Source: a virus | Taxonomy: Duplodnaviria; Caudoviricetes | IMG/VR virus record: IMGVR_UViG_2974555739_000001 | Location: 16,149-80,148 of that record | Reading direction: 5' to 3' (one strand) | Length of the DNA: 64,000 nt | In this document: positions 1,094 through 63,988 of the stretch, in pieces | How the letters are laid out: each line of letters starts with the position of its first letter | Numbering within the stretch: the stretch's first letter is position 1 | Notes under the pieces: generated by a model | Database searches by the model: none | Told to the model about the DNA's origin: nothing | Seen by the model: only the letters and a program-made list of their open reading frames with translations | Made by a program: the position numbers and the translations under genes

Positions 1094-2032
1094 ATGCCAT
1101 CATATACTAAAGCTCAACGCGATAAATTTATTGAACAAGTTCGTAAATACGCTAATGCAACACGTTTAGATGAAGCTGGTAAAAAGCTCGAAAAGCGTAT
1201 TGCTGCAATGGCTAAAACACCTCAAGGTATGAATGAGTTAGCTCAACTTATCACTGAAAACCTTGAAGAAGAAATGCAAGCATATGATTTACGTCCTTTA
1301 CTATTCGACACAAAACCACGTAAACTTTTAGAAGTGGTTGAATACAAACGTAAAGGTAAATTCCGTGCTTACCGTACAACTCGTGGCGGTTACGTTCCTA
1401 AGTCTCAAGTATTCCAGGACGTTGTAAAAGCGCAACCTGAAGAGTTTTCAGTTCGTCCAGCTTGTCACTTACTTCAATTAGAAACAGGCCGTATTTCAGC
1501 TGTTAACGATCTTATCACTGGTGCTCAAGAAGCATTACTTACTGAATATGCTCGTTATTTCTACGCTACACTTGAAGCTGTAAATGCTGGTGATTCTACT
1601 GGAAAGCTTAAAGCTCAAGTAACAGGTGAAGTTGATAAAACAACTTTAGATAAAATGTTACATGCTGCTTCTGCAAAAGGTGGACAAGTATCTATCGTAG
1701 GTACTCACACTTCATTAGCTCCAATTCTTGATTTCGAAGGATTCACTGATACTCAAAAAGATGAAATCATGCGTACAGGTAACTTAGGTGTTTATCGTGG
1801 TGCTCGTCTAGTTAAACTAGAAGAATTCCTTGATGCTGATGATTTAGAAGTAATCAAACACGATACTATCTTTATCGTTACTCGTAAAGCTGGATATGTT
1901 GATGATTTCGGTGCTATTCGTTCTCGTGAAATCATTGATCCTGAACATGACGAATTCTCAATCTTAATGCGTAAAGAGTGGGGCTTCACTGTATTATATC
2001 CTGAATATGTTCGAATGATTAAGATTGTCTAA
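1094..2032 (+). CDS. Major capsid protein (HK97 fold inferred)
   Basis: 312 aa, strongly biased codon usage, AGGAGG RBS, position after protease and decoration genes. Confidence 0.8.
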   Translation: MPSYTKAQRDKFIEQVRKYANATRLDEAGKKLEKRIAAMAKTPQGMNELAQLITENLEEEMQAYDLRPLLFDTKPRKLLEVVEYKRKGKFRAYRTTRGGYVPKSQVFQDVVKAQPEEFSVRPACHLLQLETGRISAVNDLITGAQEALLTEYARYFYATLEAVNAGDSTGKLKAQVTGEVDKTTLDKMLHAASAKGGQVSIVGTHTSLAPILDFEGFTDTQKDEIMRTGNLGVYRGARLVKLEEFLDADDLEVIKHDTIFIVTRKAGYVDDFGAIRSREIIDPEHDEFSILMRKEWGFTVLYPEYVRMIKIV

Positions 2033-2042
2033 TAAAATAATT

Positions 2043-2063
2043 GGAGGGGTTTATCCCCTTCTT
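2043..2063 (+). terminator. Intragenic-operon terminator-like hairpin after the capsid gene
   Basis: GGAGGGG-TTTAT-CCCCTTC stem followed by T-rich bases. Confidence 0.55.
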
Positions 2064-2085
2064 ATCTTTAAAGGAGTGGAATGGA

Positions 2086-2478
2086 ATGGCTGAAAACAAA
2101 GAAATCGTTTTAATCAATAATTCTGGTCAACTTTTTACAATTAACTTTATGGGTGCTTTCCCTATTAACAAGTGGGCTAATCCAGGTGGTAAATATTATT
2201 TATCTGAAAAAGAATATGATTTCGTTAAAGCGAATTACTCTCATATTCTAGGTAAGCAGCTTGTACACGAAGGTGAAGAAGGCGAAACCTATAACCAAAT
2301 TGATGAAGTTTCTGCTGATGCATTTTTCACTATGCACCATACGAAACAAAAAGCAGCGATTAAAGAAATGTCTGATGAAAAACTTCAGGAACTACTTGGT
2401 TACGCTGACTTAAATGAAATCAATAAGAAAATTGTGAAAGAGATTGAAGAACAGTATCTACAGAACGAAGGTGAATGA
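2086..2478 (+). CDS. Head-associated hypothetical protein
   Basis: ORF track 2041..2478; AAGGAG RBS supports ATG at 2086. Confidence 0.55.
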   Translation: MAENKEIVLINNSGQLFTINFMGAFPINKWANPGGKYYLSEKEYDFVKANYSHILGKQLVHEGEEGETYNQIDEVSADAFFTMHHTKQKAAIKEMSDEKLQELLGYADLNEINKKIVKEIEEQYLQNEGE

Positions 2479-2834
2479 CAATGATCGACTTCGAGACGTT
2501 GATCCCTAAACTTCGTACACGAATTGATGATTTAGATACCGCTGATTTTGAATACAATGATGGAGAACTAACCGATCATCTGCAAAATTCACTTGATAAA
2601 TATAATATGCAATTGCCATTGGATAAACCTTCAGATGGTCAATTAATCATCGTTGAGACAATGATTGCAATTGTGACTGCTTTAAAAATGTGGGCTGATG
2701 GAGAAAGTTATTCTTACAAAAATGATGCTGTTCAAATGACACGCGGATTGATGTCTAAACATTACCTGGATACACTGAAACAACTTCGTATCGAAAGAAA
2801 CGATATCTTGGAAGGGAATGGAGGGGTTTACTAA
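2475..2834 (+). CDS. Head-tail connector/adaptor-like protein
   Basis: 119 aa helical protein after the capsid genes (LRTRIDD...LTDHLQ pattern); call is mostly positional. Confidence 0.55.
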   Translation: MTMIDFETLIPKLRTRIDDLDTADFEYNDGELTDHLQNSLDKYNMQLPLDKPSDGQLIIVETMIAIVTALKMWADGESYSYKNDAVQMTRGLMSKHYLDTLKQLRIERNDILEGNGGVY

Positions 2835-3004
2835 TGCGTAAAGACGAAAAAGAAATCGTTAATGCATATTTATGGAAATCCCACGTTTTAATTTTAGATT
2901 TAGTTGACTTAGTTGAAGATGATAAACTTCGACAAAAGATTAAAACTAAGGTTTTAGATGTGGCCCATGAAACACAAGAATATTTAAAAAATGATGAAAA
3001 GTGA
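2834..3004 (+). CDS. 56-aa hypothetical protein (MRKDEKEIVNAYLW...), below the ORF-track cutoff
   Basis: Manual translation; ATG overlaps the upstream TAA; GGAGGGG RBS; fills the intergenic gap. Confidence 0.65.
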   Translation: MRKDEKEIVNAYLWKSHVLILDLVDLVEDDKLRQKIKTKVLDVAHETQEYLKNDEK

Positions 3005-3015
3005 GGTTTTAAATT

Positions 3016-3522
3016 ATGCCATTCACAGGTAAAGAAGAAATTTATAATGGTTATAACCGAAAATTATATTTCACAGATGGTACGCCAAACGCGAAACCAA
3101 CTGATACAAGTCCTACTTACACTTGGACAGAATTAGGTTATGATGACTCTTTTTCTTTCAATGAGAACGAAAACGAAGCTCAAAAATACAACAAGCGCGA
3201 AAAATCTCATAAGAAAAAAGGCCGTCAAGAATACACATTCGATATCTCTCAACTTTACAGCGGTGTTGAATATTCTATCTTCATGTTCAAAGGTAAAACA
3301 GGAACATTGAAACAAGTAACTGAAAATGATGCTGGTGATATCGTAGAAGTTAACTACTTCCACAATGCTGACATTAACTCTCCACAGTTTTCAGGTGGCG
3401 GCGATGATGGTGATGATTCTGTATCAGCTTCAGGTTCTTACTCTAAACGTTTCTTATACGACGGACAAGCAGCAGGTTCTACTTTACTGTTCGCTACTGA
3501 TGGAAGTCACGAGACTCCCTAA
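3016..3522 (+). CDS. Major tail (tube) protein
   Basis: 168 aa, beta-rich and acidic, highly biased codons, followed by a terminator; ends in CCC-TAA. Confidence 0.7.
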   Translation: MPFTGKEEIYNGYNRKLYFTDGTPNAKPTDTSPTYTWTELGYDDSFSFNENENEAQKYNKREKSHKKKGRQEYTFDISQLYSGVEYSIFMFKGKTGTLKQVTENDAGDIVEVNYFHNADINSPQFSGGGDDGDDSVSASGSYSKRFLYDGQAAGSTLLFATDGSHETP

Positions 3523-3579
3523 TTCGGCCCTTGATTTGGGGGGCTTATCGTATTAGATCGTTTAGGTACGATATAGTTG

Positions 3580-3616
3580 AAAAGAGCACATCTATTAAGT
3601 TAGGTGTGCTTTTATT
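3580..3616 (+). terminator. Rho-independent terminator
   Basis: AAAGAGCACATCTA...TAGGTGTGCTTT stem plus T-rich tail. Confidence 0.7.
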
Positions 3617-3653
3617 TGTATCGTGTGAGTTTTCGTCGGATAGGCCATTTGTA

Positions 3654-3686
3654 AGAGAAAAAACATTTCATTCAAGATATTAATAA
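3654..3686 (+). promoter_or_regulatory. Putative phage late promoter, copy 1
   Basis: GAGAAAAAACAT-N9-GATATTAATAAC, nearly identical to 7588-7620. Confidence 0.6.
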
Positions 3687-3716
3687 CAATGTAACATTAA
3701 TTAAGGAGGTTAAAGC

Positions 3717-4235
3717 ATGACTTCATATTTATATGATGATGGTAATGGTCTTCGCACATCTGCTCGTGTCGAACCAACAACAGGGAAACCAATTACAGAC
3801 GTTTCTAACATGGTTAAAACTAAAAGTGGTTTATGGATACCACAAACAGGTACAGAAGATGGTGCTGCAAACGTTCAAGTAGCAGGATCAGACATTATGA
3901 TGCCAACACATTTACAACGTCAATTAACTCCACAAGATAAAGTAGCGACTGCTTTTTCTGTAGGTGCTGGATCGACTCAAACTGTATTTGTTGCTGATTT
4001 TGATGGTTTTGCTAATTTTGGCGTTATGTCTGTTCCTACCGCTTCTCACGATTATAACCTTTCTGTTTTCTGTAGTCCTGATGGAAATACATTAGTTGAA
4101 AGAAATATGAAGAGTGGTACAGGGTGGGGCAAATCATTAACAGGTGCTTCAGTAGGAGCGTTCGTTATGATCCAAATTACCAACAATAGCGGTTCTGCTG
4201 CAAATTATGATATTTGGTTAAGAAAATTTAATTAA
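3717..4235 (+). CDS. Minor structural/tail accessory protein
   Basis: 172 aa, beta-rich C-terminus, in the tail region; strong RBS. Confidence 0.5.
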   Translation: MTSYLYDDGNGLRTSARVEPTTGKPITDVSNMVKTKSGLWIPQTGTEDGAANVQVAGSDIMMPTHLQRQLTPQDKVATAFSVGAGSTQTVFVADFDGFANFGVMSVPTASHDYNLSVFCSPDGNTLVERNMKSGTGWGKSLTGASVGAFVMIQITNNSGSAANYDIWLRKFN

Positions 4236-4250
4236 TAAGGAGGTAAAAAG

Positions 4251-4682
4251 ATGACTACTTTTATTGAAGCGATGCCAAAAGAAATGAGCATGTTCGATGG
4301 TGAAATTTTCCCTTTAATTCCTGGTGGAGAAAATAACGGTATTTATTTGGATGGTTACACTAGGGTAGAATGGTTCAAAAATGTATTCCCTGACATCGCT
4401 AATGCTGAATTACCATTAACACGAGAAATTTACGATCAATTAAAAGCTATCGGTGAAGTTTGGTTGATGAATGCAGCTCAATGGAGAAAGAATGATATTA
4501 TTCAAGTTGAGGGTTTGACAGCTGAAGATAAATTGGATGATGAGGAAGTTTTGTTAGATATAATGAACCAACAACGAAACCCTAATCCTGAAGAAACTGA
4601 AGAACCTCCTGTAACTGAAGAAACGCCGCCAAATAACGAAGAACAACCAAAAGAAGAGGAAACACCAACTGAAGAGGTGTAA
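4251..4682 (+). CDS. Hypothetical protein with acidic P/E-rich C-terminus
   Basis: ORF with strong AGGAGG RBS. Confidence 0.5.
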   Translation: MTTFIEAMPKEMSMFDGEIFPLIPGGENNGIYLDGYTRVEWFKNVFPDIANAELPLTREIYDQLKAIGEVWLMNAAQWRKNDIIQVEGLTAEDKLDDEEVLLDIMNQQRNPNPEETEEPPVTEETPPNNEEQPKEEETPTEEV

Positions 4683-4711
4683 CAACCTCTTCCCTTTAAA
4701 GGAGGGTAAAC

Positions 4712-7360
4712 ATGAAGAAGATCGATAACTTGTTCGATATAAATGATGGAGATTGGAATAATGGTTCAGCTGATGGGAATTGGAGTTACTTTGTGGATAG
4801 TGGAAGGATTAGGAAGAACAAGCGTGTTCCTGTTAAACCAAACACACAATATACATTAAAGTGTGCTCCTGGATACCAAATTTACATCAGACAATTCGCT
4901 AGTGAATCAGGTTTCGAAATTGGCGCTTCTACCTGGAGGGATAGTGGTTATACTTTCAAAACTGAATCAACAACTACATTAGTCGGTGTTATTGTCAGAA
5001 GATCAAGTAACAGTTCTATTAACTTAGTTGAATTAAGTGCAGCTAATCCGATAATGGTTGAAGGTGCTTTCGAGTCTTATTCTTTGAAAGAAACAAATAA
5101 CTTCGCTGCAACTTTATTTCAAAAAAACCTTTTGATTATCGAACCTAGATTATGGCCTAAAGGTGTTAGGCAACAAAATCAATCAATACAAGTTGGAGAT
5201 TACCGTATTACATATGACGGTACTTTTCCAAAAGTAGAAGAAAACAAACTTTATCGTTTGGAAATGAACGCTAATTATAAAGCTGGTGTTTTTGTTTTTG
5301 ATAAGAATAATGTTTGTCTTTTGGATACAGGATGGAAATATGGTTCTTTTGATTTCGCTATTCCTGCTGGTGGAGTAAAAATTGCTATAAATTTTGCTAT
5401 GAGTAATGATGGTGCTATTGATCCGAACAGAATTCTCCAAAGTGGTTTAAGTGTTTTCAAAAAGACTCCTGAAAAAAACAAACCAGCTAAAATGTATAGA
5501 GGTAAAAATTTCTTGACATTCCCTGATGGTGAATGGACTAGAAGACCAGGAACATTAAACACAACGTTCACTAAAAGTCGTTTAGAATGGGATAATTTCC
5601 AAGATTACGCCGGTGTACAAATCCTTTTAGAAGATGCTTTATTGCAAGGCAAAACTGTAACATTCGGTGGTAAGCGTCATCCTGATGCTACTATTATTTT
5701 ATTTTATAAGAAACCTGATGGTACTAATGCTTACATCGGTCTTGGAACAGGGGAAATGGAAAGGACATTATTTATTCCTTATGGAGCTTCAGAATGTCGT
5801 TTTTACGTTCAAAATGCAAACGGAATAAGAACTAAGTTATGGGCTGAAGATTTGTACTTGAATATCGATTCTGACAAAATTTACACTCCTTCTAAAGCTC
5901 AAAACAAAACAGCTTTACTGTTTCCTAAGAAAAATTTAATTCCTGATTTTAATGATCCAGGATGGTTCAATGATTCTTCTGTTGGTAGTGGCCCTTTGAC
6001 TGTTGATCCGGAAAATCCTTATAAAGCTAAATTGAAAGTTAACCTTAGTGCTCAAGGTAAATTAATTTGGATACCTGTAGAACACGGAAAAACTTACACT
6101 TTCTCTTTTAAAAATATTACAGGTCTTTATCGAATCTACAAACGAAAAGTCATTAACCATGATAATAATTTAGCTTTAGCTCAAAGTGCAAGTGTTGGCG
6201 CTCCTACAACATACTCTTTTACTGTTGATGCTGATTATCAAGGTTACATTTCTATCAGATTAACTCAATCCGTCGCTGGAGAATACACTTTTGAAAATTT
6301 GCAATTAGAAGAAGGTATTTCATCGACGAATTTCGAACCTTTAAAGTATGGCCCTAAAAAGCCTGTCAGACCTATCGCTAATATGATTGATTTCAAATCC
6401 TTAACACCTGGATATTTTGTTAGTGATGCTAACGGTTTAAATACAGGTTCGGGTGCTGGATTAGCCGCTACTGATTATATGGATTTTGTAGAAGGAAAGA
6501 AATATGTAGTTGAAAACATGCCTAATACTTTCCCACTCGTCTTGCGTTTTGCTTATTATGACAAAAACAAAACTTTCATAAGTGGAACGAGTCACTATAG
6601 CGGTGTAAACGCTCCAAAGACATTGACAGCACCAACAGGAGCGCGGTATATGAGAACCGCTGTTCATCCTTTAGATTACAGCACAGCGCGTATTTATTGC
6701 ATAGAAGATAATACGAAAGACACTCTAGGACTTGTTAGAGCACCTTATCAAGATATACCTATCGTCACTTCACGTAATGTTCCAGTAGCGAAAGATGGTA
6801 AGATATTCGCTATAAATCAACCTGTAATTGTAGATGGTGGGATTAGAGTTTCTGAAATAGGAAAAGAAAGTCACGTAACTAAACCTATAGGTGTTATAGA
6901 TAATGTTTCAGGCTCTTTGGAATTCACTTACATTCCTGATAACGAACAATCCTATTACAAAACTAACACTGTAAATAGAACTTACTTTAGTACGAATACA
7001 GGTCAGAATTTCCGTGTGTGGAGTTGGGGTGGTGGAGCTAACCATATTATCAACTTCGATTTCAGATCAGATGTTAGGGTTTTCTTTGATTTTGGAACTG
7101 ATTTAACGAAGTTAGAAAAAGGTGTGCCAATAAAATTCAGGATTGAATGGAGTCCTACGCAATTCAAACTTTACGTCAATGATGCTTTGAGATTAACAAA
7201 AGATATAAGTACCGCTTCGAATGGAAACACCTTCAATGGGCAAGTGCTTACTTCTCCTTTGTATATCGGTACTAATATAACAGAAACGAATGCTATGACA
7301 GGTATTTATAAAAACATCACAATCAAAGACAGAAACGGAAATGTCACACTAAAATTTTAA
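4712..7360 (+). CDS. Multi-domain carbohydrate-binding tail/receptor-binding protein
   Basis: About five repeated modules starting (K/A/D)N(L/F/M) with V.V(K/E).(N/G)..Y motifs, resembling CBM jelly-rolls; C-terminal LamG/ConA-like segment. Confidence 0.6.
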   Translation: MKKIDNLFDINDGDWNNGSADGNWSYFVDSGRIRKNKRVPVKPNTQYTLKCAPGYQIYIRQFASESGFEIGASTWRDSGYTFKTESTTTLVGVIVRRSSNSSINLVELSAANPIMVEGAFESYSLKETNNFAATLFQKNLLIIEPRLWPKGVRQQNQSIQVGDYRITYDGTFPKVEENKLYRLEMNANYKAGVFVFDKNNVCLLDTGWKYGSFDFAIPAGGVKIAINFAMSNDGAIDPNRILQSGLSVFKKTPEKNKPAKMYRGKNFLTFPDGEWTRRPGTLNTTFTKSRLEWDNFQDYAGVQILLEDALLQGKTVTFGGKRHPDATIILFYKKPDGTNAYIGLGTGEMERTLFIPYGASECRFYVQNANGIRTKLWAEDLYLNIDSDKIYTPSKAQNKTALLFPKKNLIPDFNDPGWFNDSSVGSGPLTVDPENPYKAKLKVNLSAQGKLIWIPVEHGKTYTFSFKNITGLYRIYKRKVINHDNNLALAQSASVGAPTTYSFTVDADYQGYISIRLTQSVAGEYTFENLQLEEGISSTNFEPLKYGPKKPVRPIANMIDFKSLTPGYFVSDANGLNTGSGAGLAATDYMDFVEGKKYVVENMPNTFPLVLRFAYYDKNKTFISGTSHYSGVNAPKTLTAPTGARYMRTAVHPLDYSTARIYCIEDNTKDTLGLVRAPYQDIPIVTSRNVPVAKDGKIFAINQPVIVDGGIRVSEIGKESHVTKPIGVIDNVSGSLEFTYIPDNEQSYYKTNTVNRTYFSTNTGQNFRVWSWGGGANHIINFDFRSDVRVFFDFGTDLTKLEKGVPIKFRIEWSPTQFKLYVNDALRLTKDISTASNGNTFNGQVLTSPLYIGTNITETNAMTGIYKNITIKDRNGNVTLKF

Positions 7361-52868: not shown

Positions 52869-52912
52869 AGTATACACACCAATAACCAATAAGTCAACTA
52901 TTTCTTATAAGT
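52869..52912 (-). promoter_or_regulatory. Recombinase promoter with adjacent 14-bp operator
   Basis: TTGACT-N17-TATACT; TATTTCTTATAAGT at 52899-52912 abuts the -35. Confidence 0.75.
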
Positions 52913-58193: not shown

Positions 58194-58521
58194 CACTGTC
58201 AGTTTTACAACTTCTAAAAAAAATGAGCAGAAAAATGTTTCAACACTGAAAAAACAGTGTATGATATAAGTGTAACAACAAACTAACTCACTCTCTCATA
58301 TGTTTCATGATCGTAGTAGCTAATTTGATACAAAATTTGATTCCCCCTCAAATTTATTTGTTGAATAAGCGATGATATGCCAAAAAAGGAAACTCCAATA
58401 TCATATGTAAATATAAATCGAATGTTTTTCTAACTCCTGTTTTTTTCATTCGGATTATAAATACATTTTGATGTCGGTGTTTCCTTTTTTTTATTACACA
58501 AAAACTAAGGAGTGTTCAAAT

Positions 58522-58968
58522 ATGTTCAATAGAAATGTGACGATGGATATTATGTGTAAGCGATGCAAAAGAAAAACTGATGCAACAGACTTTCCAGCTC
58601 ATAAAATTGCAATAAAATGTGAATGTGGTGGATGGTTAATCACTCCAACAGGCACGTTTGATGCACAATTAGTTTATCACAAATTCGCATTTTCATTAGC
58701 AAGCAAAAAATTAGTTTCTGTTATCATTTCTGATAGCCTGGAAAATGCTATTGCTTACTTTGAAAATCTTCACAATGAAAAGGTAGATCAAACACATAAG
58801 ATCAATCCTATCAACTATCAAGACATCACGTTCACAAATACAATCAAGAATGAAGAAGGTCATGAGGAAGAAATTGTTGCTGATTTGTGCGATATCATTT
58901 TCAGCTGCAATCAAGACAACTTAGAAGCTGCTCACATGACAATGGACGAATACATCCAACGCTTCTGA
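58522..58968 (+). CDS. Protein with N-terminal Zn finger (CKRC...IAIKCEC)
   Basis: AAGGAG RBS supports ATG at 58522; ORF track 58468..58968. Confidence 0.65.
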   Translation: MFNRNVTMDIMCKRCKRKTDATDFPAHKIAIKCECGGWLITPTGTFDAQLVYHKFAFSLASKKLVSVIISDSLENAIAYFENLHNEKVDQTHKINPINYQDITFTNTIKNEEGHEEEIVADLCDIIFSCNQDNLEAAHMTMDEYIQRF

Positions 58969-59591: not shown

Positions 59592-59640
59592 AAAAAAGCA
59601 CCAACACACTAACCATTTTTAAGGTTAATATGTTGGTGCT
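59592..59640 (-). terminator. Terminator of the early operon
   Basis: GCACCAACA..TAACC-loop-GGTTA..TGTTGGTGC followed by TTTTTT on the minus strand. Confidence 0.75.
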
Positions 59641-59647
59641 CGCTTAT

Positions 59648-60395: not shown

Positions 60396-60417
60396 AATAA
60401 AATCACTCCTAATATAA

Positions 60418-60471
60418 TTTTAGATGTTTTAAGCATCTATAAAAGCCATATCAAGCGATATGACTTCTAAC
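60418..60471 (-). promoter_or_regulatory. Double-hairpin leader element A
   Basis: 13-bp stem with GCTT loop, then TAGATG/CATCTA stem, then AGGAGTG RBS. Confidence 0.7.
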
Positions 60472-60481
60472 ATACTTAAAG

Positions 60482-60760
60482 TTATCTTGCACCAACATAT
60501 ACATGATAATCACTATTTGGAGCTTTTAAACATTCAATAACGTTTCCGTATCGGTTCAAACTCATTTTTGTAATATCATCTAACGAAAAGCCTTGATGCT
60601 TCAACTCTTCGTCTGCATCTTGAGTCATTTCAAAAGTTCCAAAAAAAGTGAAATCAGGATTTTCTTCTAATTCTTTGATTTCGTTTTCTAACTCTTCTTC
60701 GCTATCTAAATTACAAATACCAACAATACCACATGCACTATTATAAAGTTCTTCATTCAT
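60482..60760 (-). CDS. Acidic early hypothetical protein
   Basis: 92 aa; GGAGTG RBS. Confidence 0.6.
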   Translation of the reverse strand: MNEELYNSACGIVGICNLDSEEELENEIKELEENPDFTFFGTFEMTQDADEELKHQGFSLDDITKMSLNRYGNVIECLKAPNSDYHVYVGAR

Positions 60761-60784
60761 TTTAAAATCACTCCAATTTTTAAA

Positions 60785-60840
60785 TTTTAGATAAATTAAA
60801 TTATCTATAAGAGCTATGAAACAAGTTCATAACTCCTAAC
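60785..60840 (-). promoter_or_regulatory. Double-hairpin leader element B
   Basis: 13-bp stem with CTTGT loop, then TAGATAA-TTTAAT-TTATCTA. Confidence 0.7.
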
Positions 60841-60845
60841 ATAAG

Positions 60846-61157
60846 TTAATTTATTCCCATGTTTTCGCCTATCTCTTCTATTTCCTTGATACTTGTGTAC
60901 GTTTTGCGGAATTGTCTCGCGTCTTCTAAAGTTTTGAATTCTTGAAAGTCTCCAAGTGTTTCAATTTTATTAGTGTTATGATTAAACCATCTTAATGTAT
61001 AAAGTTTATCCATATCCAATTCCATACGTTCACTAGTAATGAAAATGTTTACTTTGTTCGGTTGTGTTTCGATTTGGCTATTGAAAAAATCCATAGCTCC
61101 TTTACTAAACCACATAGGACAAAGTTCTTTCATTTCATTGATAGATAGTTTTTTCAC
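60846..61157 (-). CDS. Early hypothetical protein (WFS..AM.FF...FITSE motif)
   Basis: 103 aa; GTG start; GGAGTG RBS. Confidence 0.6.
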   Translation of the reverse strand: MKKLSINEMKELCPMWFSKGAMDFFNSQIETQPNKVNIFITSERMELDMDKLYTLRWFNHNTNKIETLGDFQEFKTLEDARQFRKTYTSIKEIEEIGENMGIN

Positions 61158-61180
61158 AATAAATCACTCCAATTAGTTTT

Positions 61181-61237
61181 TTTTAAAGGTATTAAAACCT
61201 TTAGAGAAGTTACAAACCGTAGTTCGTAACCTCTAAA
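61181..61237 (-). promoter_or_regulatory. Double-hairpin leader element C
   Basis: 13-bp stem with TACG loop, then TAAAGGT-TTTAAT-ACCTTTA. Confidence 0.7.
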
Positions 61238-61246
61238 AAGCTTTAA

Positions 61247-61552
61247 TTAAGAAATGTAATAATAATGGTTATTTTCTTCGCTGTCTTCTAAAACCATCAC
61301 AAGTGTATGAGCGTTAACTAAGGCGAAATAACTTACTTCCATACCTTCGTACTCTACATAGTTCATAACATTTAACATAGGAACAGTAGAAGAACTATAA
61401 GCGGTAGATACTTCAACTTCGTATCCTTCCATTTCTTCGAACCATTCAGCGATATAACTTTCAATCCCTGTAATTTCGAAGTTGCTCATATCCTTAAAAG
61501 TTTCTTTGAAATCCTGCTCGTTTGAATAATCAGCTTTTACAAATCTTGTCAT
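61247..61552 (-). CDS. Acidic early hypothetical protein
   Basis: 101 aa; GGGAGTG RBS. Confidence 0.6.
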   Translation of the reverse strand: MTRFVKADYSNEQDFKETFKDMSNFEITGIESYIAEWFEEMEGYEVEVSTAYSSSTVPMLNVMNYVEYEGMEVSYFALVNAHTLVMVLEDSEENNHYYYIS

Positions 61553-61578
61553 AATAACAACACTCCCAATTTTTATTG

Positions 61579-61632
61579 TTTAGGTTTACAACCTAATTCA
61601 AAACATCAAACGCTTTTGATATCTTGAGTTAA
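61579..61632 (-). promoter_or_regulatory. Double-hairpin leader element D
   Basis: 13+4-bp stem with AGCG loop, then TAGGTT-GTA-AACCTA. Confidence 0.65.
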
Positions 61633-61704
61633 GCCGCAAAAGCAGCTAGACCGGAGTGAGTGATTTTGTTATTTAATTTTCAAGGATCGGTGTATCTAAT
61701 ACTT

Positions 61705-61732
61705 ATTATAGCAGTTATTTCTTATAAGTCAA
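61705..61732 (-). promoter_or_regulatory. Early sigma-A promoter with 14-bp operator in the spacer
   Basis: TTGACT-N16-TATAAT; operator at 61716-61729. Confidence 0.7.
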
Positions 61733-61802: not shown

Positions 61803-61831
61803 ATATTACATAACTATTTCCTATAAGTAAA
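61803..61831 (-). promoter_or_regulatory. Early sigma-A promoter with 14-bp operator
   Basis: TTTACT-N17-TAATAT; operator at 61815-61828. Confidence 0.6.
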
Positions 61832-62381: not shown

Positions 62382-62410
62382 ATTATATCAATTACTTATA
62401 AGAAATACAA
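62382..62410 (-). promoter_or_regulatory. Early sigma-A promoter with 14-bp operator
   Basis: TTGTAT-N17-TATAAT; operator at 62394-62407. Confidence 0.7.
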
Positions 62411-62857: not shown

Positions 62858-63200
62858 TACCCTATATGTACATACCATAGTACATATGCATACCTAATAG
62901 TAATAACATATATAACATATAGTAATACATATGTATCATGTATATATAACAATGTATATGTAACATGCATTGATACATTGAGCATGTGTGTGTCATGTGT
63001 ATGTGTGCATGTGTGTTGCATGTGTTCATTGATTGTTCAATGATGTATCGTAACATGCATGTGTATATGTAACACGTATATGTACATCAGTATCAATATA
63101 CAGTAACATCATTATCAGTATATATAACTCATATATGATGATGTATATATAAGATGTATATAAGCAGCTCCAACATGCATGATGATATATAAAGCTATTG
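62858..63200. repeat. Alternating purine-pyrimidine low-complexity tract
   Basis: Dense (TA)n/(TG)n/CATG; AACATGCAT at 62962, 63052 and 63172. Confidence 0.75.
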
Positions 63201-63410: not shown

Positions 63411-63988
63411 TATTAAAAATATAATGTTCAATTGTACATAGCTTCGACGTATTATAAGCACACGTTGGATAGTTACATGCAAGCCTAAACTGCTGATAAG
63501 AGTCTTCAGCTCGCGCGATCTGTTACCCTAACCGCTGTTATGGCCTAAAAAAATGCTTAAAAAAAGATGTGTAAATGTTGGGCCACATCTAACCTTGTAT
63601 ATGGGCTTCTTATAAGATAACTTATAGGAAATAAGCAGCGTGGCGGGTACTTTACATTGTTTTTCGTAAAATTTGATAAAAACGTTCCGTACTCCCCACT
63701 CCTTCCAACCGGCCATTTTTCCCCTTCGAGTAACTAATTTTTCTCGAATAAATCCCCGAATATTTACGAGTAGTAGCTAATAATAGTCGGATCAGCTACC
63801 AGGGGGGTACTTTTACAAATTAGAAATAATCGACTTTTTCTTGATATATCGCGGTTTATTTAAAATTTTTTGTGACATATAGCGAATAATAGCTTCTTAT
63901 AATTGTTCGGTAAAATAGGTTAATGCATGTAACGAATAAAATGTGTGTATGATGATAGAAATAACTTACTAGGAAAGGATGATCCGGA

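Follow-up and report, generated by a model that had tools for sequence, protein, structure and literature searches.

Covarying RNA elements in the leader and intergenic gaps of a Slashvirus operon, a probable form of phage mRNA punctuation

Introduction

Why should four consecutive genes of one phage operon each be preceded by a stable RNA structure of the same design? The question is raised by a minus-strand operon in a tailed phage genome (Caudoviricetes; IMG/VR record IMGVR_UViG_2974555739_000001; 80,148 base pairs (bp), with direct terminal repeats). The window analyzed here is the right-hand 64 kb of that record. The operon comprises five open reading frames (ORFs) between one promoter and one terminator, and the elements in question occupy its leader and all three of its long intergenic gaps. 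Database matches (Pfam, PHROG) assign no function to any of the five proteins. An initial annotation, made from the sequence alone, described the elements as four double hairpins and proposed that they might process or stabilise the messenger, respond to a Com-like protein, or represent an undescribed cis-regulatory RNA family.

On the basis of its relatedness to the published genome of Stahl (PMC4541283), the host genome is identified as that of the Slashvirus phage Stahl. The nearest relatives are the Bacillus (Priestia) megaterium siphophages Slash, Staley and Stills, also of the genus Slashvirus. The hairpin structures are not mentioned in the Stahl genome paper (PMC4541283). The operon is probably early, to judge solely by its consensus sigma-A promoter. 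The structure, covariation, strand specificity, conservation and mosaicism of the elements are computed here; for the nuclease, the position of cleavage and the effects on stability and translation, we infer by analogy.

Results

Four double-hairpin elements

Folding places a double hairpin in each of the four regions, as the initial annotation had described (W1 in the leader and W2-W4 in the gaps; Table 1). The first hairpin (hp1) has 13 bp (13-14 bp across copies) and a loop of 4-5 nucleotides (nt). The second (hp2) follows after 0-1 nt and has 6-7 bp, with the loop UUUAAU in W2 and W3. An A/U linker of 11-13 nt separates hp2 from a GGAGUG Shine-Dalgarno sequence, itself 7-8 nt from the start codon. 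Fold z-scores of the elements range from -3.7 to -5.4. When the whole genome (80,148 bp, both strands) is scanned with a descriptor of this architecture, these four places are the only ones at which it precedes a ribosome-binding site; the remaining matches are terminators or a low-complexity tract. Scanning for any single hairpin with 22 or more pairs does not discriminate, and many coding windows pass. Near the right genome end, at 62858-63200, lies a low-complexity alternating purine-pyrimidine tract with many short palindromes, which yields spurious hairpin matches in scans.

Each copy holds 3-5 G-U pairs. The minimum free energy (MFE) is -23 to -29 kcal/mol in the sense orientation versus -10 to -21 kcal/mol in antisense, the sense strand being better by 4-15 kcal/mol in each case. 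A covariance model built from W2-W4 and their orthologues (R1) scores the three intergenic copies and orthologues at 55-81 bits in sense and 20-25 bits in antisense. Because of the G-U pairs and this asymmetry of fold and score, the feature can be placed in the RNA and not in duplex DNA. RNAalifold detects compensatory changes in 12 of 19 pairs, in agreement with the earlier claim that compensatory and G-U changes preserve the pairing. The view of the elements as four of a kind needs qualification: all four share the architecture, but only W2-W4 form a sequence family. R1 misses W1 at E <= 10, and W1 is a structural analogue with the same architecture and a different sequence.

Rfam models at the gathering threshold give 0 matches in the whole window. 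At E <= 1 over the operon there are only two chance-level matches to microRNA precursors, one of them on the W1 long hairpin described below (23.6 vs 98 bits). The promoter scan finds no internal promoter within the elements at 9 or more of 12 matches on the coding strand. A separate candidate, a stimulator of readthrough or frameshifting, was considered for hp1, which starts 7-12 nt past the stop codon; it was rejected by inspection, the in-frame extension being short and unconserved.

Two competing folds

The double hairpin is real, but it is one of two competing folds, the other being a long hairpin at the upstream stop codon that the initial annotation missed. Three strands take part: X, at or over the upstream stop codon; Y, directly 3' of hp1; and Z, 3' of Y. 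In hp2, Y pairs with Z. Once about 20 nt of upstream sequence are included, a fold appears in most copies in which X pairs with Y (the 5' arm and loop of hp2), so that hp1 is lengthened to about 25 bp, with a bulge. This long hairpin consists of a lower stem of 9-12 bp, a bulge of 1-2 nt and an upper stem of 13-14 bp. The upstream stop codon lies inside X, the 5' strand of the lower stem, or 0-2 nt ahead of it, so that the lower stem has to open when a ribosome terminates there. The long fold accounts for the conserved UUUAAU loop of hp2, which in this fold pairs with the UUAA found at the stop codon. No two types share an hp1 loop (AGCG, UACG, CUUGU, GCUU, AUAAA), and conserved bases are confined to the surroundings of the bulge (UUAG / U-N-U-A).

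In local constrained folds, the long form beats hp1 plus hp2 by 1.6-7.3 kcal/mol in 11 of 11 copies, W1 included, and it is the more stable in 14 of 14 after three more leader orthologues are added. In contexts of about 150 nt, hp1 is formed in every copy (P 0.93-0.99), while X:Y and Y:Z divide the ensemble between them; the long form is dominant in 8 of 12 contexts.

Both pairings covary. In a nine-sequence alignment, 94% of the cells are paired in the long fold and 13 of 26 pairs show two-sided compensatory changes, a result reached by none of 500 shuffles; slid controls are 34-52% paired. Both pairings outdo shuffled sequences, with p values per element of 0.000-0.078 for X:Y and 0.000-0.084 for Y:Z; the Z arm of hp2 does so in every type. 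The four intergenic types have GGU, UAA, UGC or GCG at positions 60-62 of Y, and the partners in X and in Z both change in step. Compared with that of Stahl, the Stills leader has G-C in place of G-U pairs and a two-sided deletion of 1 bp, changes that leave the lower stem intact; its hp2 is 2 bp shorter. Since MAFFT alignments that include the leader type mis-register, the leader was analyzed apart, and hp2 covariation was tabulated by script. On these predicted structures, the element is best described as bistable.

The leader differs from the gaps in one further respect. In both the MFE and the centroid structures of all four phages (4/4), a strand of the leader forms a closing helix with the initiation region of gene 1, and the hairpins are enclosed within it. 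For genes 2-4 there is no conserved helix masking the Shine-Dalgarno sequence; W2 shows a weak pairing of 6-7 bp, and W3 and W4 weak A/U pairing nearby. The ribosome-binding site of gene 1 is thus the only one predicted to be masked, by a long-range helix of the leader.

Distribution and mosaicism

Among the sequences searched, only Slash, Staley and Stills share the elements. The orthologous gaps of these three phages fold alike, with Stills supplying a further sequence variant. R1 finds W2-W4 and their orthologues in the same three phages. A search of IMG/VR for more relatives returns only Staley and Stills, and a search of metagenome contigs returns no relatives. The gene of 92 amino acids (aa) has no match by tblastn; that of 101 aa leads to the B. 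cereus phage PBC4, whose gaps measure 27-33 nt and are free of the element. DUF7447, found in the 103-aa gene, is shared with Goe8, a phage of the Herelleviridae, and with P100-like phages of Listeria, again without these elements. The suggestion of an undescribed cis-RNA family is borne out by elements that are strand-specific, covarying and free of Rfam matches; on sequence comparison, we regard the family as real and as narrow in range, with four known Slashviruses.

Homology to Slash, Staley and Stills breaks off at ORF boundaries or within elements. Compared with Slash and Staley, Stahl has an insertion made up of the 92-aa gene and hp1 of W4, and it is flanked by two copies of the half-element that comprises hp2, linker and Shine-Dalgarno sequence. 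The same slot holds an unrelated 148-aa gene in Stills, with an element variant of its own, and is missing from Slash and Staley. The intergenic regions are mostly better conserved than the genes that flank them. In Staley, the leader is 91% and the intergenic region IGR_b 90% identical, against 57% for the 101-aa gene; in Stills, IGR_c is 92% identical versus 72% and 78% for the 103-aa and 208-aa genes. Gene 1 is 57-63% identical in Staley and Stills, and the adjoining leader and gaps mostly 81-92%. There are exceptions, such as IGR_b of Stills, which is 65% identical owing to an insertion of about 40 nt. The Stills counterpart of the W2 gap (3346-3395) has an inserted stretch of about 40 nt that folds as an additional hairpin, 3' of hp2 and 5' of the Shine-Dalgarno sequence.

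These comparisons support the earlier proposal that the genes behave as swappable cassettes, with the elements coinciding with mosaic junctions. As the same element flanks every ORF, recombination within it would exchange ORFs as cassettes.

The operon and its surroundings

The features of the operon are collected in Table 1. The operon promoter bears a ACTTATAAGAAATAAC motif that is common to other promoter-like sites in a motif census. The sequence ACTTATA(A/G)GAAATA overlaps the spacer of the operon promoter (61714-61729) and occurs at four other sites, all promoter-like (61813-61828, 52897-52912, 62394-62409 and 63620-63635); the census gives 9 matches at up to three mismatches versus 2.5 expected. 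It may be that this sequence is a shared operator. Further upstream, 61835-61792 resembles a second copy of the Slash-type promoter.

Just 3' of the operon terminator, the non-coding minus strand contains two long, near-perfect, A/U-rich hairpins, at 59542-59467 (32 pairs) and 59404-59329 (27 pairs). Between the terminator region and a convergent plus-strand zinc-finger ORF (58468-58968) lies a G+C-rich island in this A/T-rich genome (58967-59300). It is made up of about four related repeat units (…AUAACGGAA…GAGCUAUAGG…), and several of its stretches fold into long hairpins.

Table 1. Positions in the window of the operon, its signals and its RNA elements
Feature	Position	Strand	Basis or remark
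Sigma-A-type promoter of the operon	61705-61732	-	TTGACT, 16 nt, TG-n-TATAAT; 11/12 matches in promoter scan
Leader strand opposing the gene-1 initiation region, AAUAACAA-AAUCACU-CACUCC	61653-61673	-	8 + 6 bp complementary to gene-1 Shine-Dalgarno and spacer
W1 (leader), whole	61580-61646	-	Folding; hp0 61646-61633, hp1 61627-61598, hp2 61596-61580
W1 long hairpin	61640-61585	-	Lower stem 12 bp, 1x1 internal loop, upper stem 13 bp
Gene-1 translation initiation region, GGGAGUGUUGUUAUU	61553-61567	-	Predicted to be sequestered by leader strand
Gene 1, 101 aa	61552-61247	-	ORF map
W2, whole	61184-61247	-	Folding; hp1 61234-61205, hp2 61203-61184; R1 76.8 bits
W2 long hairpin	61247-61191	-	5' strand begins at third base of upstream UAA
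GGAGUG of 103-aa DUF7447 gene	61165-61170	-	Sequence
Gene 2, 103 aa, DUF7447	61157-60846	-	Pfam
W3, whole	60788-60857	-	Folding; hp1 60838-60808, hp2 60807-60788; R1 76.3 bits
W3 long hairpin	60857-60789	-	Upstream UAA paired within lower stem
GGAGUG of 92-aa gene	60769-60774	-	Sequence
Gene 3, 92 aa, cassette in this phage only	60760-60482	-	ORF map, homologue comparison
W4, whole	60421-60487	-	Folding; hp1 60469-60440, hp2 60439-60421; R1 58.8 bits
W4 long hairpin	60487-60422	-	Main lower stem begins 2 nt past upstream UAA
GGAGUG of 208-aa gene	60404-60409	-	Sequence
Gene 4, 208 aa, phrog_19941	60395-59769	-	PHROG
Last gene, 39-aa Com-like zinc-ribbon ORF	59767-59648	-	PHROG E 4e-6; Pfam Zn_ribbon_Com below cut-off
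Intrinsic terminator closing the operon	59596-59641	-	19-bp stem, then U tract

Discussion

Comparison with known phage systems

The analogy with the RNase III punctuation of T7 and SPO1, drawn in the initial annotation, fits these elements best. The T7 sites R0.3-R1.3 are hairpins between early cistrons, with two stems of about one turn around an internal loop, and the cut leaves a 3' hairpin on the upstream product. The Stahl elements are likewise intercistronic hairpins of a probably early polycistronic transcript, with two stems around an internal loop. They differ in the host enzyme and in sequence, and neither competition with a downstream hairpin nor overlap with a stop codon has been described for T7.

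In SPO1, the host-takeover region contains six copies of a repeated element, in intercistronic and leader positions. A covariance model built from five of them (R2) finds the sixth and more divergent copy at 5805-5877, in the leader before gene 44 (33.7 bits, E 2e-7). In their fold, the lower stem includes the upstream stop codon; above it come an internal loop and an upper hairpin of 7-13 bp containing G-U pairs, and a small hairpin lying 0-5 nt downstream can form as an alternative, the same two-fold design as in Stahl. Several traits are thus common to Stahl and the SP82/SPO1 type. In each case small-gene operons under sigma-A control carry the element repeatedly, between cistrons or in the leader; the lower stem takes in the upstream stop codon on its 5' strand; a small alternative hairpin lies directly 3'; the upper hairpin, of 7-14 bp with G-U pairs, is accompanied by an internal loop or bulge; and a strong Shine-Dalgarno sequence follows. 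As is typical of SP82/SPO1 sites, those of Stahl stand between cistrons or in the leader of a small-gene operon transcribed by the host polymerase, and each is a long irregular stem-loop of about two helical turns (9-12 + 13-14 bp, with a bulge of 1-2 nt).

The differences are also clear. Stahl stems are A/U-rich with a bulge of 1-2 nt, whereas those of SP82/SPO1 are G/C-rich with a larger asymmetric loop, and Stahl is a siphovirus (Slashvirus), whereas SPO1 and SP82 belong to the Herelleviridae. The sequence of the SPO1 family, GUUGCUAG ... AUGGAGCC ... GGCUAC, is absent from the Stahl elements, which by this comparison fall outside the SPO1/SP82 sequence family.

Another class of repeated stem-loop is found in the promoter-early stem-loop (PeSL) cassettes of T4-type phages and in the promoter hairpins of Goe8. 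Like the Stahl elements, these are repeated intergenic stem-loops beside small early genes and are associated with modular gene shuffling. The Stahl elements differ in having no sigma-A promoter and in being transcribed inside one mRNA; moreover, the Goe8 hairpins embed the -35 sequence TTGAC and use Watson-Crick pairs only, whereas those of Stahl have G-U pairs. In Bacillus phage vB_BmeM-Goe8 itself (1364-5494), nearly every small-gene gap near the genome end has a perfect Watson-Crick hairpin of this kind, for example GGTGGTTGAC-TTTTAAT-CAACCACC, with a TATAAT-like -10 sequence after it. The stems covary between copies and recall PeSL cassettes.

Processing and stabilisation by host RNase III

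The reading that we favor, which stands an even chance of being right, is that the elements punctuate a single polycistronic mRNA, transcribed from a sigma-A promoter, as sites at which host RNase III processes and stabilises it. Duplexes of this kind, bulged, about 25 bp long and placed between cistrons, are classic substrates of RNase III. The SPO1/SP82 sites for this enzyme are reportedly treated in Panganiban and Whiteley 1983, Mitra and Bechhofer 1994 and Stewart 1998, and the polypurine/Shine-Dalgarno 5' stabiliser that adjoins them in Hue 1995. In SP82/SPO1-type sites, the stems have internal loops and receive a single cut on the downstream side (PMC1935012), and the duplexes recognized by B. 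subtilis RNase III measure 10-36 bp (PMC11780869). No phage-encoded RNase III was found, so the host enzyme would be used. The unconserved hp1 loops fit a structure-specific enzyme and argue against a protein that reads the loop.

The long form would be the substrate of the host's double-strand-specific RNase III, and the nick would fall on the 3' side, close to the bulge, by analogy with the early-mRNA sites of SP82/SPO1 and T7. The upstream cistron would then keep hp1 as its 3' end, blocking 3' exonucleases. The downstream cistron would refold Y:Z at its new 5' end, and this hairpin, together with the strong GGAGUGAUUU Shine-Dalgarno sequence 11-13 nt further on, would shield it from RNase J1, a 5' exonuclease. 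For the leader copy, cleavage would have a second effect, the removal of the 5' strand predicted to sequester the gene-1 ribosome-binding site. A ribosome that terminates at the upstream stop codon has to melt X, and translation should bias the toggle between the two folds. In SP82, mutation of the ribosome-binding site shortens the half-life of the mRNA (PMC7509114, citing Hue 1995); for SPO1, cleavage by RNase III is cited among the features of the terminal redundancy (PMC3896407).

A more elaborate form of this proposal is tentative, and we think it rather doubtful. In it, the element would be a ribosome-gated bistable processing switch: termination at the stop codon would melt X and flip the hairpin of about 25 bp, sensitive to RNase III, to the resistant pair hp1 and hp2, so that translation of the upstream cistron would set the fate of the downstream one. 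After cleavage, the freed Y would refold with Z as a protective hairpin at the 5' terminus. With the unrelated SPO1 elements obeying this three-strand logic too, the design would then be a convergent and general one of Bacillus phage operons, left undescribed by classic work on RNase III.

Several observations weigh against RNase III punctuation. The long fold is the minority form in W1, W3 and the copy Stills_d, where hp2 dominates, and the A/U-rich stems make thermodynamic predictions soft. The elements are confined to four close phages, and the covariation is that of about five paralogous types, with no deep phylogeny. There is no sequence similarity to SPO1/SP82, and R2 gives no match at the elements of the window; R1, for its part, scores two SPO1 copies at only 11-12 bits (E 1.6-2.3). 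The SPO1 repeats themselves are presumed to be the sites homologous to the mapped Bs-RNase III sites of SP82, with indirect backing only (PMC3896407, PMC1935012). The role of a nuclease in Slashvirus is in this sense a proposal drawn from sequence and analogy.

Other explanations

It is possible, if unlikely, that the elements act without RNase III as insulators and translational couplers. They would be passive barriers to RNase J1, PNPase and RNase R, and would keep the A/U linker and Shine-Dalgarno sequence clear of the upstream coding sequence. X:Y would bring the stop codon near the next ribosome-binding site, and terminating ribosomes would toggle the fold, coupling translation across gaps of about 85 nt; any cut would be made by RNase Y, in the single-stranded linker, or by RNase J1. 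The stop codon embedded in X is in keeping with this account, as are the steady distance of 11-13 nt from hp2 to the Shine-Dalgarno sequence, the position of the latter (free of pairing in both folds, or else exposed within a weak A/U loop), and the preference of RNase Y for AU-rich single strands with downstream structure (PMC11780869). However, a plain barrier requires neither a duplex of 25 bp nor three covarying strands. The conserved UUAG / U-N-U-A at the bulge suggests a recognition site, and the design parallels the RNase III sites of phages.

It is quite improbable that the elements are binding sites for the operon's Com-like zinc-ribbon protein, or for another phage RNA-binding protein, giving each cistron translational control of the kind that Mu Com provides for mom. 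A Com-responsive element was proposed in the initial annotation; in its favor are the 39-aa Com-like ORF, which is last in the operon and is annotated as gpCom in Slash and Staley, and the conserved leader helix. This helix, predicted to mask the gene-1 ribosome-binding site beside the hairpins, resembles the translation-inhibiting mom structure. Against the proposal stand genes 2-4, whose Shine-Dalgarno sequences are outside any conserved masking helix in both folds, gene 1 alone being predicted as masked. In addition, the hp1 loops vary by type and offer no conserved loop for sequence-specific binding, and the conserved UUAA of the hp2 loop is accounted for by its pairing with the stop-codon region. 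Unlike Mu, the operon has no mom-like gene; the match to Pfam Com reaches 19.5 bits versus a cut-off of 22.9 bits, and the ORF is without the C-terminal half of Mu Com (39 aa vs a 52-position profile).

The mosaicism could also be taken to mean that the repeats are DNA-level recombination linkers only, which promote or record the exchange of cassettes and have no function as RNA. The breakpoints at ORF boundaries or in elements are what such linkers would leave, as is the sharing of one slot, empty in Slash and Staley, by the unrelated 92-aa and 148-aa genes, each with its own element. This explanation is nonetheless very improbable: the G-U pairs and the asymmetry of sense and antisense show selection on the RNA of one strand, and compensatory changes hold the helices as the sequence diverges, the opposite of what homology-driven recombination needs.

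That these stable intergenic hairpins are weak intrinsic terminators or attenuators grading transcription along the operon is hardly credible, because neither hp1 nor hp2 is followed by a U tract (the sequence after hp2 is A-rich), the terminator scan calls nothing within these gaps, only the true terminator of the operon and two more elsewhere, and the annotations of Slash, Staley and Stills call no terminators there.

Implications

The family is most probably a new variant, in sequence and structure, of RNase III-type punctuation of phage mRNA. As such, it would add a covariation-supported cis-RNA family, absent from Rfam and from the Slashvirus genome papers, to the small set of known phage mRNA punctuation signals, with a Gram-positive siphovirus as its source. 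Transcription and translation are uncoupled in Bacillus, and the architecture of X, Y and Z over the upstream stop codon, also present in the SPO1 repeats, leads to a hypothesis that would link processing, mRNA stability and the translation of adjacent cistrons in these hosts. The units, at 60-70 nt, are possible insulating or processing parts for synthetic operons in Bacillus or Priestia. The coincidence of elements and mosaic junctions suggests, finally, that a conserved RNA punctuation signal can double as a recombination linker for the ORF-precise exchange of gene cassettes.

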